This document shows, one piece after another, positions 7,632 to 29,508 of a DNA stretch of 36,514 nucleotides. A program made the position numbers and the translations under genes. The notes beneath the pieces were generated by a model. That model was given only the letters and a program-made list of their open reading frames with translations, was not told the origin of the DNA and did not search any database. How positions within the stretch are numbered: the first letter of the stretch is position 1; every line of letters starts with the position of its first letter. The DNA comes from a virus (Duplodnaviria > Caudoviricetes): positions 1 to 36,514 of the IMG/VR virus record IMGVR_UViG_3300008448_000285, one strand, 5' to 3'.

Positions 7632-8168
7632 CTAGCGGCCCGCAGGAGCGTCCGAATCAGGCAGCGAAGGGCTAGGTAGCTTGGCGTCCTCTGCGTGGCT
7701 CACAGAGGCTTCTACTCCCTGCGCTTGATCCGTCGCATTGTTAGTCCAGTGACTAGGCGGGGAATGCTCAATGGCATCAACCACTTGCGCGTCCACGATC
7801 TCGGCTTGTGCCGTTTTTGTGCCGATGTTGCGGCCCGCCAGCCAGTTTAGGCTGATGCTGATCCCGCCTTGCACCGACTGGTTGACCTGAATCGGAATGA
7901 CCTTTGCCACCATCGTGGCGAAGATGGCCCGGTCCTGCACGCCGCCATTGGCCCGGTCCACCAGCCAGCCAGCCAGCCCCTGCGGGTGGCAGTCCCTGGC
8001 CGCGATCTCCACGGCCTCTTTGAGCGAGCGCGTGAACGCGGTAGGAGCGCCAGTCTTGCGCCCGGCAGGGTTCCCGGACTGCCCCGGCTTGAACAGGTGC
8101 GCGGGCTTCTGCTTGGGCTTTGCGCTTGGCAGAGTTGCGGCTTTCGCCTCATGTTGCGTTGTCTGCAT
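7632..8168 (-). CDS. terS: Terminase small subunit (probable)
   Basis: FKPGQSGNPAGR motif and position upstream of terL. Confidence 0.75.
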   Translation of the reverse strand: MQTTQHEAKAATLPSAKPKQKPAHLFKPGQSGNPAGRKTGAPTAFTRSLKEAVEIAARDCHPQGLAGWLVDRANGGVQDRAIFATMVAKVIPIQVNQSVQGGISISLNWLAGRNIGTKTAQAEIVDAQVVDAIEHSPPSHWTNNATDQAQGVEASVSHAEDAKLPSPSLPDSDAPAGR

Positions 8169-18075: not shown

Positions 18076-19026
18076 ATGCCCCTCAAGCTGCGTAATGAAG
18101 TGTATTGGCTAGACGTCCAGATCAATGGCAAACGCATCCGCGAATCGCTCAAGACCGGCGACAAAGCCGCAGCCAAGCAAGCGCATGACATGCGCGTGGG
18201 CGAACTCTGGCGCGTGGGCGTGCTCAAGGAGCGCCCGAAATGCACGTTTGGAGAAGCGTGCGACCGCTGGCTGATTGAGAAGGCAGGCAAGCGCAGCATC
18301 GAAACAGACAAGCTGCGCATTGGGCTGATCAAGCCCAAGCTGGGCGCCAGGCAGTTGAGCGAGATCACGCGGGAGCGTGTCGAGAAGATTCTGCCCAAAG
18401 ACGCCAAGCCCGCCACGCGCAACCGATACCGGGCGCTGATTCGCTCCATCCTCAAGGCCGCTGAGCGCGAGTGGGACTTGATCGACCGCGCCCCGTTCAT
18501 TAAGGCTGAGCGCGAAAACAACAAGCGCGAGACGTTCCTGACGCGAGAACAGGCAGAAGCACTGCTGGTTAACCTGCTGCCCAAGTACCGGCCTGCAGTG
18601 CGGTTTGCGATGCTCACCGGCTTACGCCGCGCCAACGTCCTTGGCCTGCGCTGGGATGCCGTCAACCTTGAGGCGGCGACGGCCAAGGTGGCGCCTGAAG
18701 ACGCCAAGGGCGGCAAGCAGATCGTTGTGCCGCTCAATGAGGCCGCTATGGCGCTGCTGAAGGCGCTGCCGCATCGTCAGGGGTCTGTGTTTGGCATCGC
18801 GCACATCAGCCGCAGCGTGTGGCAGGGCGCGTGCGAGAAGGCTGGAGTGCCGGGGTTTAGGTTCCATGACCTGCGCCACACTTGGGCGTCCTGGCACGCT
18901 CAGGCGGGCACGCCAATTCAGGTGCTGCAGGAACTCGGCGGTTGGGCCTCGCACAGCATGGTGCAGAGGTACGTTGCTTTTGCGCCGCAGCACTTGGCGG
19001 ACGCGGCGCGTGCGGTGACGATTTGA
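18076..19026 (+). CDS. int: Tyrosine integrase
   Basis: TGLRRANV (R), AKGGK (K), FHDLRHT (HxxR), LGGW, MVQRY (Y); AGGAG RBS. Confidence 0.95.
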   Translation: MPLKLRNEVYWLDVQINGKRIRESLKTGDKAAAKQAHDMRVGELWRVGVLKERPKCTFGEACDRWLIEKAGKRSIETDKLRIGLIKPKLGARQLSEITRERVEKILPKDAKPATRNRYRALIRSILKAAEREWDLIDRAPFIKAERENNKRETFLTREQAEALLVNLLPKYRPAVRFAMLTGLRRANVLGLRWDAVNLEAATAKVAPEDAKGGKQIVVPLNEAAMALLKALPHRQGSVFGIAHISRSVWQGACEKAGVPGFRFHDLRHTWASWHAQAGTPIQVLQELGGWASHSMVQRYVAFAPQHLADAARAVTI

Positions 19027-19078
19027 TGTGCCAGAATCGTGCCGCCGGTTAACCGGCAGCTCTCCTCTCGCAAGAGTT

Positions 19079-19106
19079 AAGCCCCTGATTGCAGGGGCTT
19101 TTTTTT
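19079..19106 (+). terminator. Integrase terminator
   Basis: AAGCCCCTG-ATTG-CAGGGGCTT plus T run. Confidence 0.85.
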
Positions 19107-19117
19107 GGGCTAGACCG

Positions 19118-19157
19118 AATTCCAGTCCAGCGCCTTGAGCCTCTCGGCCACCTCTCC
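19118..19157 (-). other. 5' half of tRNA-Ser(GGA), allele A (att core; not a full tRNA)
   Basis: GGAGAGGTGGCCGAGAGGCTCAAGGCGCTGGACTGGAATT: acceptor 5' strand, D arm, anticodon 5' strand, loop CTGGAAT. Confidence 0.8.
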
Positions 19158-19219
19158 AATCAATGACTTGCGTGTGAGCGATGGACACAATGTGCCATTT
19201 TTGTGCCGTTGAAGTCCAC

Positions 19220-20083
19220 TCACTCATCGTCGCGCTTCTTCTTTTTCTCTTCCTCGCGCTTGTTGCGTAAAGCACTCACAGTCGCTGCGGTAGTTGTACC
19301 AGCGGCCAGCGCGGCGAGCAACTTCGGGTCTGCCGCGCCTAGAAGATCGTTCTTATTGGCTTTGGCTGGGTCAAAGGCTGCGAAGCGCGACCTGACAATG
19401 GATGGGTCAATAACTATGACCCTGCCATCAGACAACACTTTGATCGACTGGAACCCAGCATCTTTTGCTTCTAATAACGCACCAGACTCAACCATTGGAT
19501 TACTACTAAACGCATCAACAGTTTTCTGATTGTTGTTACGCACAAGAAGCGGCATCACGTTGCCGCCTTGACCTTCATAGCCTGCATACGCTGGGCTTGA
19601 TGCGAATCTAGGGTCTTCTGATGTAAAAAACGAATTCGCAATGCGTGACTTTTTAGGGTCTATGTTTTTGATGTCTGATTTTGTTCCATGATAGACATCA
19701 TTCACAAATCCAAGGGCCTGTGCCCTATCCATCGCCGTGTTGTTCTCAGGAAGGCCAAGCATCTTGACTGCGTTCTTCCGAGCAGTCTCCAAAGCCTCAT
19801 CACGCGGCGCAGCGCGTAAGGCTTTAGCAAGTAGAGGAGCCGCTGCCATAGCCTTCACAGCGCCCGCAGGAGCCCCAACGCCAGGGACGTTGCTGAACGC
19901 GGCTGCATTGCGGTAAGCGTCCATGCCCAGCGCGTCCGCGTACTCTGGCGCGTCTAGCCCAAAGTAGCCGCGAACGCCGCCCCCGACTAGCTGGCGTGCA
20001 GGGTTGCCCACGTTGCGCATGTAGGAGTCAGAAAGCTCGTTAGCTCTCTTGCGCAATGCTTCAATGATGGCTTCGCTAGGCAT
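19220..20083 (-). CDS. ADP-ribosyltransferase-like (ART-PolyVal-type) domain protein, possibly virion-ejected
   Basis: VYHGT, FFTSEDPRFAS..YA, GNVMPLLV, PSIVRSRFAAFDP within Ala/Gly-rich helical flanks. Confidence 0.6.
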   Translation of the reverse strand: MPSEAIIEALRKRANELSDSYMRNVGNPARQLVGGGVRGYFGLDAPEYADALGMDAYRNAAAFSNVPGVGAPAGAVKAMAAAPLLAKALRAAPRDEALETARKNAVKMLGLPENNTAMDRAQALGFVNDVYHGTKSDIKNIDPKKSRIANSFFTSEDPRFASSPAYAGYEGQGGNVMPLLVRNNNQKTVDAFSSNPMVESGALLEAKDAGFQSIKVLSDGRVIVIDPSIVRSRFAAFDPAKANKNDLLGAADPKLLAALAAGTTTAATVSALRNKREEEKKKKRDDE

Positions 20084-20086
20084 CAG

Positions 20087-20431
20087 TCAACCTTTTCCAA
20101 TGTTAGCAGCCGCTCTGACAATAGCTCTGCGGGTGGCGGAAAATGGATTGCTTCCATACGTCTCGGAAAAATGCTCCCTGTAATAAGCGGTGGCTTTCGG
20201 TACAAACCGACTGCTAGCAGGGATTTCCTGTGTAATTTGAATGCCCAACTTCACCGCCAGTCGCAGGGCATCTCCATCGTCTTTCAGTGGATTCCATTCA
20301 CGGCCAGTTGCCACGCCAGTGAGATCAACGCAGCGGGTAAACATCATGTCGGACTGCCATCCGTGGCCCCAATGCGCTTCAATCCCCGCCGCCTTCGCAG
20401 CGGCCTCAAGCAATTCTCGGTCATTTTCCAC
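20087..20431 (-). CDS. Conserved phage protein (NinX/ABA-sandwich-like)
   Basis: RELLEAAAKAAG...WNPLKDDGDALRLAVKL...ATRRAIVRAAA; GTG start after AAGGAAG. Confidence 0.65.
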   Translation of the reverse strand: MENDRELLEAAAKAAGIEAHWGHGWQSDMMFTRCVDLTGVATGREWNPLKDDGDALRLAVKLGIQITQEIPASSRFVPKATAYYREHFSETYGSNPFSATRRAIVRAAANIGKG

Positions 20432-20441
20432 GGCACTTCCT

Positions 20442-20622
20442 TGTGTCAGAAACGTGCCGGATTGTGCGTGAAACGCACTCGGGTCTAGGGAGAGACCCTT
20501 TGATTTGCTTGGACTTTTTTAGGTCGATGCTTAATTCCAGTCCAGCGCCTTCGACCACTCGGCCACCTCTCCGATCAAACACTTAGCTCACCTCGGCACT
20601 CACCGTGTGCCATTTTTGTGCC
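20442..20622. other. attP-like site 2
   Basis: Arm repeats TGTGTCAGAAACGTGCC (20442-20458) and TGTGCCATTTTTGTGCC (20606-20622); IHF-like GATCAAACACTTA (20573-20585); core 20533-20572; all offset 1415 bp from site 1. Confidence 0.85.
20533..20572 (-). other. 5' half of tRNA-Ser(GGA), allele B (att core)
   Basis: GGAGAGGTGGCCGAGTGGTCGAAGGCGCTGGACTGGAATT; 36/40 identical to allele A. Confidence 0.8.
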
Positions 20623-21066
20623 CTAAATGAGCGAACACTCTGCGGCCCGCCTTCGGACCAGTCCGGGCAGAACCTTACCACCACCCCGCACCCATTTCAT
20701 CAGTTCTGTGCGGGCGCCAGCATCATCGTCCGCGTTGATACGCCTACGCAGGGTGCTGTTCTGCAGGGCGCCTGTGCCGCAGTTGAACGCGAAGTCTAGG
20801 ATGGCCCCGGTGGCCTGCTCGCCCCACTCAGGCAGCCCAGGGCAGAGCTTTAGTACACGCGGCAGGCAGTGCTCTAGCTCCCACTCCAAAAGCGCCATAG
20901 CCCGCTCACGCGTGATAGGCGGGTCTTTCAGCGATACGCGGACGCCGCTTTCGTAGAAGGTGCTGCCAACGCCAATCGTGGGGACCGCTGCGGGGCACAG
21001 GTAAGGCTTGAGGTACATGCCCTCAAACACCAAGCACAGGTCACGCGCAACCTGTATGGCGCTCAT
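20623..21066 (-). CDS. Endolysin, GH24 lysozyme
   Basis: FEG...YLCPAAVPTIGVG (E-x8-C-x5-T), FAFNCG, STL, GGKVLPGLVRRR. Confidence 0.92.
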   Translation of the reverse strand: MSAIQVARDLCLVFEGMYLKPYLCPAAVPTIGVGSTFYESGVRVSLKDPPITRERAMALLEWELEHCLPRVLKLCPGLPEWGEQATGAILDFAFNCGTGALQNSTLRRRINADDDAGARTELMKWVRGGGKVLPGLVRRRAAECSLI

Positions 21067-28375: not shown

Positions 28376-29508
28376 CTCTCTTGCAAGTAAGGATCATCCA
28401 TCAAGAGCTGATCCCAGTAATCATTACCAGTCAGCAACTGCTGACTCAGCATGTCAAACAAGGCCATCTCATCAAGATCGCGCTGCGTCAGACCTTGTGT
28501 TGCAGTGTCTACCGCAACAGATGGCTGCACAGTGTCTTCCGCAACTGCTGCTGGAAGTGTGCTTGTGATGTCCGTGTTGAGCAGAGCTGCGTAGTCCTCA
28601 AGCTCAGTCAAAGGATCAATCTGCGTTACCGAATTGGCATCACGGATTGTGTTGATCGTTGATGCATCTTCCTGCACAGGAGCATCAACAGTGGGCAGCG
28701 TGCTCGTTATGTCCGTGTTGAGCAGGTCAACATACGAAGACAGCTCATCCAAAGGATTGACAGCCGTGACGTCTGAAGCATTGTTCAACGCATCGCGTGC
28801 TGCTTTGTACGCGTCAGTAACTCCTGTCTTAACCTCAATTTCGCCTGTCGGTATGTCATAAACAGTTGGATCAGGATCGGCCTCTAATACAGGTGGATCA
28901 GGATCGGCCTCTAATACAGGTGGATCAGGATCGGCCTCTAATACAGGTGGATCATAATCCGCTGTTGATCTAGGCGGGCGCGGCGCAGGCGATGGCGGCA
29001 CAGGCGGAGGAGCACTAACATCTGCTTCCAATGGCGGAAGGTCAACGATGTCAATAACTTTGGGTTCATCTACTGCAATAGCATCGGCCACCGGGCCTGG
29101 ATCAGCAGGGTCCGGTTCAGCCTCAAAAACACGATCATCAAACAGGTCATCTGTGTAATCCGGAACATCCGGAGCATCTGGTTCAATAGGTGAAGTTTTA
29201 GGCTGAACAAACGGCGGCAATTGCCGTGGCGGCGCGGGCGCAATAGGCGTAGGAGCAACAGGCGCTAGCGCGGGAGGGTTCGGAGCAGGCGCAGGTGGAG
29301 GCGCAGGAGCAGGCAACTGCGGACCAATATTCAGGCCAGGCGGCAACGGAGGCGGCACATACACAGGCCGCACACGCGGCGTGTAAACGCTGTTCTCAGG
29401 GTTGTCGTAGAACTTCAGCGTAGACGCTTGGCCCTGCATCGGCGTAGCGCCGCGCAAAGCCATGATCAACGCATCGGCTGGGGCCCCAGTGGCCGGTGCT
29501 GTTGCCAT
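28372..29508 (-). CDS. Pro-rich acidic, probably disordered repeat protein (378 aa)
   Basis: ATG 29508 coupled (TAATG) to nozzle stop and ATGA-coupled to the GNAT gene; Pro tracts and DPPVLEADP x3. Confidence 0.7.
   Translation of the reverse strand: MATAPATGAPADALIMALRGATPMQGQASTLKFYDNPENSVYTPRVRPVYVPPPLPPGLNIGPQLPAPAPPPAPAPNPPALAPVAPTPIAPAPPRQLPPFVQPKTSPIEPDAPDVPDYTDDLFDDRVFEAEPDPADPGPVADAIAVDEPKVIDIVDLPPLEADVSAPPPVPPSPAPRPPRSTADYDPPVLEADPDPPVLEADPDPPVLEADPDPTVYDIPTGEIEVKTGVTDAYKAARDALNNASDVTAVNPLDELSSYVDLLNTDITSTLPTVDAPVQEDASTINTIRDANSVTQIDPLTELEDYAALLNTDITSTLPAAVAEDTVQPSVAVDTATQGLTQRDLDEMALFDMLSQQLLTGNDYWDQLLMDDPYLQER
28867..28954. repeat. Perfect 27-bp tandem repeat (3 full copies plus 7 bp)
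   Basis: TGGATCAGGATCGGCCTCTAATACAGG at 28867, 28894, 28921. Confidence 0.95.

Follow-up and report, generated by a model that had tools for sequence, protein, structure and literature searches.

Twin attP-like modules in a temperate phage as the probable ends of an exchangeable, integrase-less cassette

Introduction

Accessory genes lying beside prophage attachment (att) sites are usually ascribed to imprecise excision or to homologous or illegitimate recombination. The routes listed in the relevant part of one published account comprise imprecise excision, homologous or illegitimate recombination, plain attP x attB recombination and attC-based integrons (PMC13492144). Here we analyse a stretch of viral DNA of 36,514 bp (hereafter the window; the entire IMG/VR record IMGVR_UViG_3300008448_000285, classed as linear and 100% complete), in which two modules resembling the attP site of a lambda-type integrase flank a short block of cargo genes. 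These two sites are probably the hybrid ends of an integrase-less cassette residing in a single attP, which the phage integrase (Int) would insert and remove through the anticodon loop of tRNA-Ser(GGA). Nine distinct cassettes (916-1,662 bp) and six distinct empty single sites were found in the phage clade that uses this tRNA, and in the open-access literature we found no phage described with twin attP sites around exchangeable cargo.

Several described systems resemble this locus, as far as the relevant sections of the cited accounts present them. Cis-mobilizable elements (CIMEs) undergo accretion with integrative and conjugative elements (ICEs) or integrative and mobilizable elements (IMEs) via a chimeric internal att site, followed by co-excision (PMC5704250). 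Like CIMEs, all nine cassettes are integrase-less units without transfer genes and with att sites at both ends, and a chimeric internal att site joins them in tandem to an element that bears an integrase, a structure from which co-excision may be expected here as well (PMC5704250). However, CIMEs are described as decayed ICEs or IMEs that reside in chromosomes and are moved by conjugation (PMC5704250), whereas the unit described here is 0.9-1.7 kb long, lies inside a phage genome, retains both arm sets complete with an arm lineage of its own, contains packed and co-oriented cargo that would travel in the virion, and was seen in a chromosomal state neither in the sets of 401 and 151 genomes searched nor in the 17 metagenome contigs. 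Considering that no int or lysin remnant was recognised among the cargo open reading frames (ORFs) and that the inner arms match no single phage attP seen, recent decay from an autonomous element appears doubtful. In phage-ICE tandems of Streptococcus and other phyla, the phage integrase binds the att sites of its partner and excises the accretion composite, as would happen here, but the partner in those tandems is a large ICE that is self-transmissible, encodes an integrase and moves by conjugation or transformation (PMC13651849).

Integrons, including those found in phages, likewise have an integrase gene beside a site that takes exchangeable, apparently promoterless cassettes in one orientation (PMC9892861). 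In contrast, no IntI, attI or attC hairpin is present here, and Int matches phage integrase families (no integron-specific profile was run); the recombinase is of lambda type, the arms are double-stranded and attP-like, the platform is the phage's own attP, and there is no cassette array. Helper-embedded phage-inducible chromosomal islands (HE-PICIs) are also small elements that enter a phage by att recombination and show two co-oriented doubled arm motifs at fixed spacing, but they are inserted within late genes and supply an integrase and replication genes themselves, whereas the cassettes here encode neither an integrase (0/9) nor a replication module of their own and use the phage attP (PMC10111431). 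Arm sites, IHF (integration host factor) sites, a 7-bp overlap and a tRNA-Ser target are shared with the attP of lambda and mv4, as is the tolerance of mv4 for variable core-binding sequence; these phages are described with one attP each, whereas the present phage has a doubled site with cargo in between and contains the tRNA 5' half (bioRxiv 10.1101/2023.11.06.565760). The system is best classed as a CIME-like accretion working in the manner of a one-slot integron, and as neither an integron nor a PICI itself.

Results

Two modules composed of phage and cassette halves

The integrase gene (18076-19026, plus strand) and the endolysin gene (20623-21066, minus strand) are convergent, and the twin modules occupy the gap between them. 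The original prediction, made from the sequence, had claimed two colinear modules of 181 bp, and these proved real: 19027-19207 and 20442-20622 align without gaps at an offset of 1415 bp (BLAST E value of the self-match, 1.6e-11), with the claimed identities of 15/17 for the left arms, 36/40 for the cores and 17/17 for the right arms. Between these elements the DNA has diverged at fixed spacing, as had been stated (spacers matching at 10/42, 11/19 and 6/20 positions), and the 100-nt flanks of the modules are identical at 28/100 and 31/100 positions, i.e., at chance level. All four core differences lie in the D-loop (AGGCTC versus TGGTCG on the tRNA strand). The proposed IHF-like boxes align as well; the right boxes are 9/13 alike, one with a perfect consensus and one with a single mismatch, and the left TGATT boxes, 7/13 alike, are weak (1 and 2 mismatches to the consensus). 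The arm-pair motif occurs five times in the window, on one strand only, compared with 0.04 times per simulated window in 200 Markov-1 simulations, a significance that is overstated because the motif was derived from these very sites.

Each module consists of an arm pair, a weak IHF-like box, a minus-strand tRNA 5' half, an IHF box and a second arm pair, i.e., as a sequence pattern, the layout of a heterobivalent-type attP with phased arm repeats and IHF sites on both sides of the core. Across all modules, left arms lie 92-93, 100 or 103-104 bp from the core and right arms 32-33, 43 or 54 bp from it, and these values mostly differ in steps of 10-11 bp, or about one helical turn. Such phasing is expected, since the arms of a lambda-type attP must face the intasome (bioRxiv 10.1101/2023.11.06.565760, in the part describing attP). 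In agreement with the earlier suggestion, both modules appear to be complete and to have been under selection as att sites of this integrase.

The modules nevertheless read as hybrids, in which the outer halves (L1 and R2) are phage-owned and the inner halves (R1 and L2) cassette-owned. L1 begins with an arm-type site pair, putatively bound by Int, of two direct repeats with an 11-bp period (19027-19043, plus strand), and as a half-site follows the integrase tree; it also includes an intrinsic-terminator-like hairpin for int (19079-19107, plus strand; a pattern match only) that overlaps the weak IHF-like box. The 1,415-bp integrase-less cassette extends from loop to loop (19119-20533). At its left end lies the tRNA-Ser(GGA) 5' half with the AGGCTC D-loop allele (19119-19157, minus strand), on the cassette side, whose anticodon loop (19119-19125, minus strand) is the likely 7-bp strand-exchange region. 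R1 (19158-19207, plus strand) follows with a perfect IHF consensus (19158-19170) and an arm pair (19191-19207), and the cassette ends with L2 (20442-20533, plus strand), comprising an arm pair (20442-20458) and a weak IHF-like box near 20493-20505. The phage then resumes with a host-type TGGTCG tRNA half (20534-20572, minus strand; anticodon loop 20534-20540) and R2 (20573-20622, plus strand; IHF box 20573-20585, arm pair 20606-20622).

Filled and empty sites in related phages

A core pattern matched 11 IMG/VR contigs, seven of which contain two cores, and contig L004, with a one-base core variant, is an eighth twin. A metagenome scan gave 17 contigs, partly the same as those from IMG/VR, and identical contigs were merged; the incomplete contigs L006, L011 and L269 were excluded from the counts of cassettes and empty sites. 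The cassettes measure 1415 bp (window and L259), 1662 bp (L002, L003 and L276), 1331 bp (L004), 916 bp (L007, L008 and L271), 1148 bp (L010 and L267), 1535 bp (L012), 1125 bp (L013 and L014), 1193 bp (L265) and 1616 bp (L266), and the empty sites are those of L005, L009 (identical to L272 and L274), L260, L263, L264 and L270. The doubled site predicted for the window thus recurs in only part of its relatives, with nine filled and six empty types. No contig has more than two cores, giving one cassette per phage. A looser 16-nt core pattern yielded no new cassette in IMG/VR (15 additional single-match loci that were examined comprised 14 chance matches and one intact tRNA), and a search with an inner-arm pattern matched only three contigs that were already known.

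These relatives show that an empty site has the order L1-core-R2 and a filled one L1-core-R1-cargo-L2-core-R2, with many cargoes per backbone. Int is at least 96% identical to that of the window in the phages with the 1415-, 1662-, 1331-, 1193- and 1616-bp cassettes and in the empty L264, and is identical in L002 and L265, which have different cargo. In L264 (Int 98.4% identical), L1 leads through a TGGTCG core to R2 and the endolysin gene, with no insert. L263 similarly represents the L012 backbone without a cassette, at 98% for each of the two halves. As close relatives carry other cassettes or none, the phage integrase likely loads and unloads accessory genes in an integron-like manner. The independent contig L259 contains both modules and an identical 1,415-bp insert, with a few base changes in the left arm, and this repetition of the twin structure argues against a chimeric assembly.

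Cassette-owned halves form a separate lineage

L1 and R2 of the window occur joined in the empty relatives L264 and L260, which lack the insert and whose right halves are 94-96% identical to R2. R1, on the other hand, agrees with R1 of L013 at every position over 52 nt (100%), and L2 is 97% identical to L2 of L012, although Int of both these phages is 64% identical to that of the window. The backbones of L010, L012 and L013 (Int ~64% identical), with which the empty forms L263 and L009 group, fall together in the outer-arm tree (100/100), in agreement with the Int tree. The inner-arm tree rejects this group (approximately unbiased (AU) test, p 6.3e-61, for a group named beforehand from the Int tree, over 153 columns and with long branches present), and the inner arms of L010 group with those of L265 and L266, which have the backbone of the window. 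All nine inner arm pairs form one clade separate from all 13 outer pairs (100/100). The trees show that the inner halves are a lineage of their own, which crosses between phage backbones. Inner halves of different types are only ~60% alike, and yet 9/9 cassettes retain both inner arm pairs, with distances to the core of 92-93 bp for one and 33 or 54 bp for the other. Considering that a twin-site phage can lysogenize with one working site, the retention of both inner halves points to selection on an att site of the cassette itself, and the cassette would have its own attP of the form L2-core-R1.

The tRNA-Ser(GGA) target and its D-loop alleles

At least 120 genome loci (the matches listed) have a tRNA-Ser(GGA) that the 39-nt half matches, and ~570 are estimated for the collection. 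The titles of these listed loci are mostly Steroidobacteraceae or unclassified Gammaproteobacteria, and going by them the host family is likely Steroidobacteraceae. Integrases that target tRNA genes often cross over in the anticodon loop, and here the sequence stops matching the host tRNA at the anticodon loop of 7 nt (L002 module 2, L009, L013 module 2 and L270), which likely places the crossover there and means that phage integration restores the 5' half of the tRNA. The 7-bp loop is identical in 119/120 listed host loci, the exception being L173, which differs in the last base. With regard to core-binding sites, the host stem forms an inverted repeat, and the phage side left of the loop differs between the modules.

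The TGGTCG allele is present in 36/120 listed host loci and in the empty L264, and the AGGCTC allele in 0/120. A control pattern, YGGTCG, matched 47/61 genomes, some of these matches being tRNA-Ser(GCT); in three genomes with two control matches, all six were intact tRNAs (Ser-GGA or Ser-GCT) with no prophage junction. Since AGGCTC occurs in module 1 of 8/9 cassettes and in module 2 of 0/9, it appears to travel mostly with the cassette. Both 5' halves, when joined in silico to a host 3' half, were called as tRNA-Ser(gga) by ARAGORN, and the AGGCTC half would thus still make a normal-looking tRNA. Because AGGCTC interrupts the core identity, the longest exact repeat between modules is 18-21 bp in 8/9 twins; it is 39 bp in L004, whose cores are identical. 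One guess is that this allele protects the cassette from deletion.

An IHF-like box lies at most 22 nt upstream of the tRNA in 39/120 listed host loci versus 36/7,534 control windows, which would fit past integrations from that side. These 39 loci (within L102-L221) have no nearby integrase or displaced tRNA half in the DNA examined, and their boxes are possibly fixed scars of old 5'-side integrations. L160 has, 205 bp upstream of its intact tRNA-Ser(GGA) gene, a nearly complete tandem copy that is truncated in the T-arm.

Discussion

Possible routes of cassette exchange

Crossing between L1-core-R2 and L2-core-R1 at the loop would give exactly the observed order. In one route, the cassette would reside in a host tRNA-Ser gene as attL-cargo-attR and an incoming phage would integrate at its L2-side junction; excision at the outer sites would then place the cassette in the phage genome, and excision at the inner site would leave it behind. 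In another, a cassette circle would recombine with replicating phage DNA by an attP x attP cross. Int-promoted attP x attP crosses are known from lambda, although our literature search found no citable paper on them. The first route, a CIME-like accretion in the host, seems somewhat likelier than the second. Cargo genes would be read by read-through from the lysis operon during lytic growth and, in a lysogen formed via module 2, from the displaced promoter of the host tRNA; such read-through is suggested by gene order and by the lack of terminator-like or promoter matches on the cargo (minus) strand within 18900-20800, where a pattern search found no terminator-like site.

Several observations weigh against the loading and unloading of cassettes by the phage integrase. 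The majority of contigs probably originate from a small number of related freshwater data sets and not from many independent samples. No excisionase was identified, nor any sigma-70-like promoter match on the cargo strand in 18900-20800. Neither a free circle junction (L2-core-R1) nor a junction of an arm with host DNA was present in the 17 metagenome contigs, by a pattern that does not detect arms in which G precedes the loop by three bases; no left-arm junction was detected in 151 genomes, where the sole match was a chance one beside an intact tRNA, and the AGGCTC allele was found in 0/401 genomes of the host family, i.e., no chromosomal cassette was seen. AGGCTC occurs in 2/6 empty sites (L260 and L009, the latter identical to L272 and L274), and in L260 the switch to the phage arm falls in a 15-bp identical stretch beyond the D-loop, which a loop crossover alone cannot give and which points to homologous recombination too. 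The two cores of L004 are identical. Near-identity extends over ~45 bp around the breakpoints, a length sufficient for homologous recombination, and a Sak4-like annealing protein is among the gene products of the phage. However, no plain prophage of the Ser-GGA clade was found either (Int has no close prophage match in five host genomes, and its best isolate matches are ~41% identical), so the missing junctions and chromosomal cassette have little weight.

Alternative explanations

The last of these points lead to the alternative that an old att duplication has been kept and that cassettes are swapped solely by homologous recombination over the 40-bp cores and arms, the integrase serving only for lysogeny. 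The AGGCTC-bearing empty site of L260, the identical cores of L004, the mosaic cargo and arm types (e.g., a partial type-b left arm in L012) and the Sak4-like and Cas4-like recombination genes in the window would all agree with such swapping. It leaves unexplained, though, why the inner halves form a separate arm clade and keep their arm pairs, IHF boxes and phased spacing in every cassette, and the longest exact match between modules is short in eight of the nine twins. We therefore regard it as unlikely, albeit the best of the alternatives. A chimeric assembly of co-occurring strains joined at the tRNA core is the least likely of all: the data are all metagenome assemblies and strains with one backbone and different cassettes do co-occur, but L259 shows the entire twin structure again, three other cassettes recur identically in at least two contigs (L002/L003, L007/L008/L271 and L013/L014), and the exact repeats are just ~19 bp.

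The original prediction had offered two explanations of its own, neither of which agrees with these results. If the two sites were a host-range device, each would serve the tRNA-Ser allele of a different host; the modules are indeed complete, both 5' halves give a called tRNA-Ser(gga) with a host 3' half, and the host family was sampled without being exhausted. Both sites nonetheless have the same 7-bp loop, and the D-loop alleles, ~20 bp away from where crossover is likely, would not be expected to determine specificity. AGGCTC was absent from all host sequences searched (0/120 listed loci and 0/401 genomes) while TGGTCG occurred in 36/120 and the control in 47/61, and there are six empty single-site phages as well as variable spacing and cargo. 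This explanation is thus very unlikely. Marginally less probable still is a single capture of the intact attP of a second phage, with neighbouring genes, by illegitimate recombination. Its cargo would be of ordinary phage accessory families, as found (29/30 loci with an ADP-ribosyltransferase homolog lack a flanking att repeat), but the right half of module 2 is the phage's own, nine inserts share identical boundaries, no single attP seen accounts for the inner halves, and the joined L1 and R2 of empty relatives such as L264, together with the empty L263, largely refute it.

Insertion of an integrase-less cassette by the phage integrase thus remains the explanation that we favour. More broadly, and as a tentative possibility that we consider somewhat less likely than its opposite, a clade of freshwater temperate phages may practise integron-like gene capture on attP, in which distinct 1-2 kb integrase-less cassettes with their own attP and a recoded tRNA half, which limits their accidental loss by shortening the exact repeat, would be loaded by the phage integrase, shuttle between phage backbones and host tRNA genes, and leave morons behind when the second site decays (as perhaps in L320). 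If true, this would be a site-specific path of moron gain beside att sites. Near-identical phages show empty and filled sites with recombination arms intact at both cargo ends, offering a testable site-specific mechanism by which temperate phages might gain and lose DNA-modifying and host-takeover genes, and raising the question of whether the attP of a lambda-type integrase can support a cassette cycle driven by that same enzyme. The entire system is shorter than 3 kb and amenable to plasmid work without phage or host culture.

Cargo genes

In the window, the cassette encodes two proteins. The first (19220-20083, minus strand; 287 aa) has a conserved N-terminal leader and a variable ART-PolyVal-like domain (PF18760, E 4.3e-6) and is a predicted ADP-ribosyltransferase (ART); its score of 28 bits is under the cut-off of 31.2, which the L012 homolog passes with 46.2 bits, and a PDB search gave nothing below E 0.1. 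The second (20087-20431, minus strand; 114 aa) matches phrog_5086, of unknown function (E 3.6e-29); its ribosome-binding site lies within the L2 arm (20436-20442), a 43% identical homolog is encoded in the L316 cassette at another tRNA, and a database query returned no confirmed relative. ART-PolyVal-like genes occur in five cassettes, with only that of L012 above the Pfam cut-off, and other cargo includes a weak GNAT (L013), N6/N4 DNA methylases (L004 and L007), Vut_1 plus a TGT-like protein (L002) and small proteins of unknown function, one with a weak HTH_17 match (L013, E 0.029). Family-matching cargo ORFs are all on the tRNA/late-gene strand and tightly packed against the arms, and an AAGGA ribosome-binding-like motif is present in 7/9 cassette left arms. 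Elsewhere, ART genes belong to the ordinary accessory repertoire of phages, and 1/30 loci with an ART homolog is flanked by att repeats.

Arms and cargo are combined in a mosaic manner among cassettes, and cargo has probably been reshuffled inside the arms by homologous recombination. The ART-like proteins of the window, L010, L012, L265 and L266 have a common ~90-aa N-terminal leader followed by a varying enzyme domain, and in L013 a related protein start is fused to a GNAT-like domain; this looks like a polymorphic effector family that is perhaps loaded into the virion. In the L012 cassette, a partial left arm of another (type-b) cassette is located at ~1197-1234, counted from the first core, where a 103-aa ORF ends within it, and may represent a decayed tandem of two cassettes. 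A short additional gene lies between int and the first arm site in L004 (5949-6170), L308, L318, L323 and others, indicating that the att region takes cargo on the int side too.

Neighbouring genes of the window

The phage is temperate and tailed, as judged from its genes for portal, terminase, capsid, tail, primase-helicase, repressor, Sak4-like protein, Cas4-like exonuclease and resolvase. The tyrosine integrase (316 aa) matches phrog_1 (E 4e-71) and, above the cut-off, PF00589 (E 2.9e-27), has intact catalytic motifs (R, K, HxxR, W and Y), and its stop codon directly adjoins the first arm site. The endolysin (PF00959, E 2e-31; phrog_7) is encoded by the last gene of the late operon, which is oriented towards the cassette and ends at the R2 arm. 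ARAGORN found no complete tRNA in the window.

A fifth arm pair with an IHF-like box, missed by the original prediction, is located at 7775-7823 (plus strand) in a terminase-small-subunit-like ORF (7632-8168, minus strand), ~11 kb from attP and without a tRNA core. It lies 32 bp past the IHF-like box in the orientation of the att arms and is conserved, synonymous positions included, in 3/3 relatives holding the gene (L523, L506 and L515); it may connect packaging or the control of late genes with Int or IHF. Two short direct repeats inside structural genes (2346-2477 and 28553-28725; BLAST E 6e-4) are probably protein repeats.

Twin layouts in the wider integrase clade

We also examined 73 more distant integrase loci (69 of a set of 80, from which five loci with little downstream DNA and six belonging to the Ser-GGA clade were removed, together with four others; downstream DNA amounts to ~1 kb or less in five of these 73), and the two-module layout was present in three, at other tRNAs. 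L307 (898 bp) and L316 (~1.28 kb) have twin modules at tRNA-Ser(CGA) via the 3' half and share a cassette-side variable-arm tRNA allele unlike the phage-side one. L320, at tRNA-Cys, has two modules of which the second has lost its far arm, and its cargo is a 562-aa methylase-like ORF (named by sequence motif, not by profile). Single-site counterparts are L323 for the tRNA-Ser(CGA) pair and L321 for L320. The twin layout is therefore frequent within the Ser-GGA clade and sporadic across the wider clade of integrases. Capture of a host promoter as a general explanation was dropped, because cargo in L307 and L316 points the opposite way relative to the tRNA.

Integrases that are 57-100% identical and have the same arm code use tRNA-Ser(GGA) by its 5' half and tRNA-His, tRNA-Cys and tRNA-Ser(CGA) by their 3' halves (names of tRNA fragments were read from the sequence, with His confirmed by ARAGORN). 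Many tRNA-His relatives have a complete tRNA-His gene directly after int (e.g., L015, 5964-6039; L022, 1372-1447), and the attP beyond it has a short core (L022 type) or a tRNA 3' half (L015 type). A resemblance to the tRNA-dependent lysogeny outlined in PMC10865867 is seen in the L022 type.

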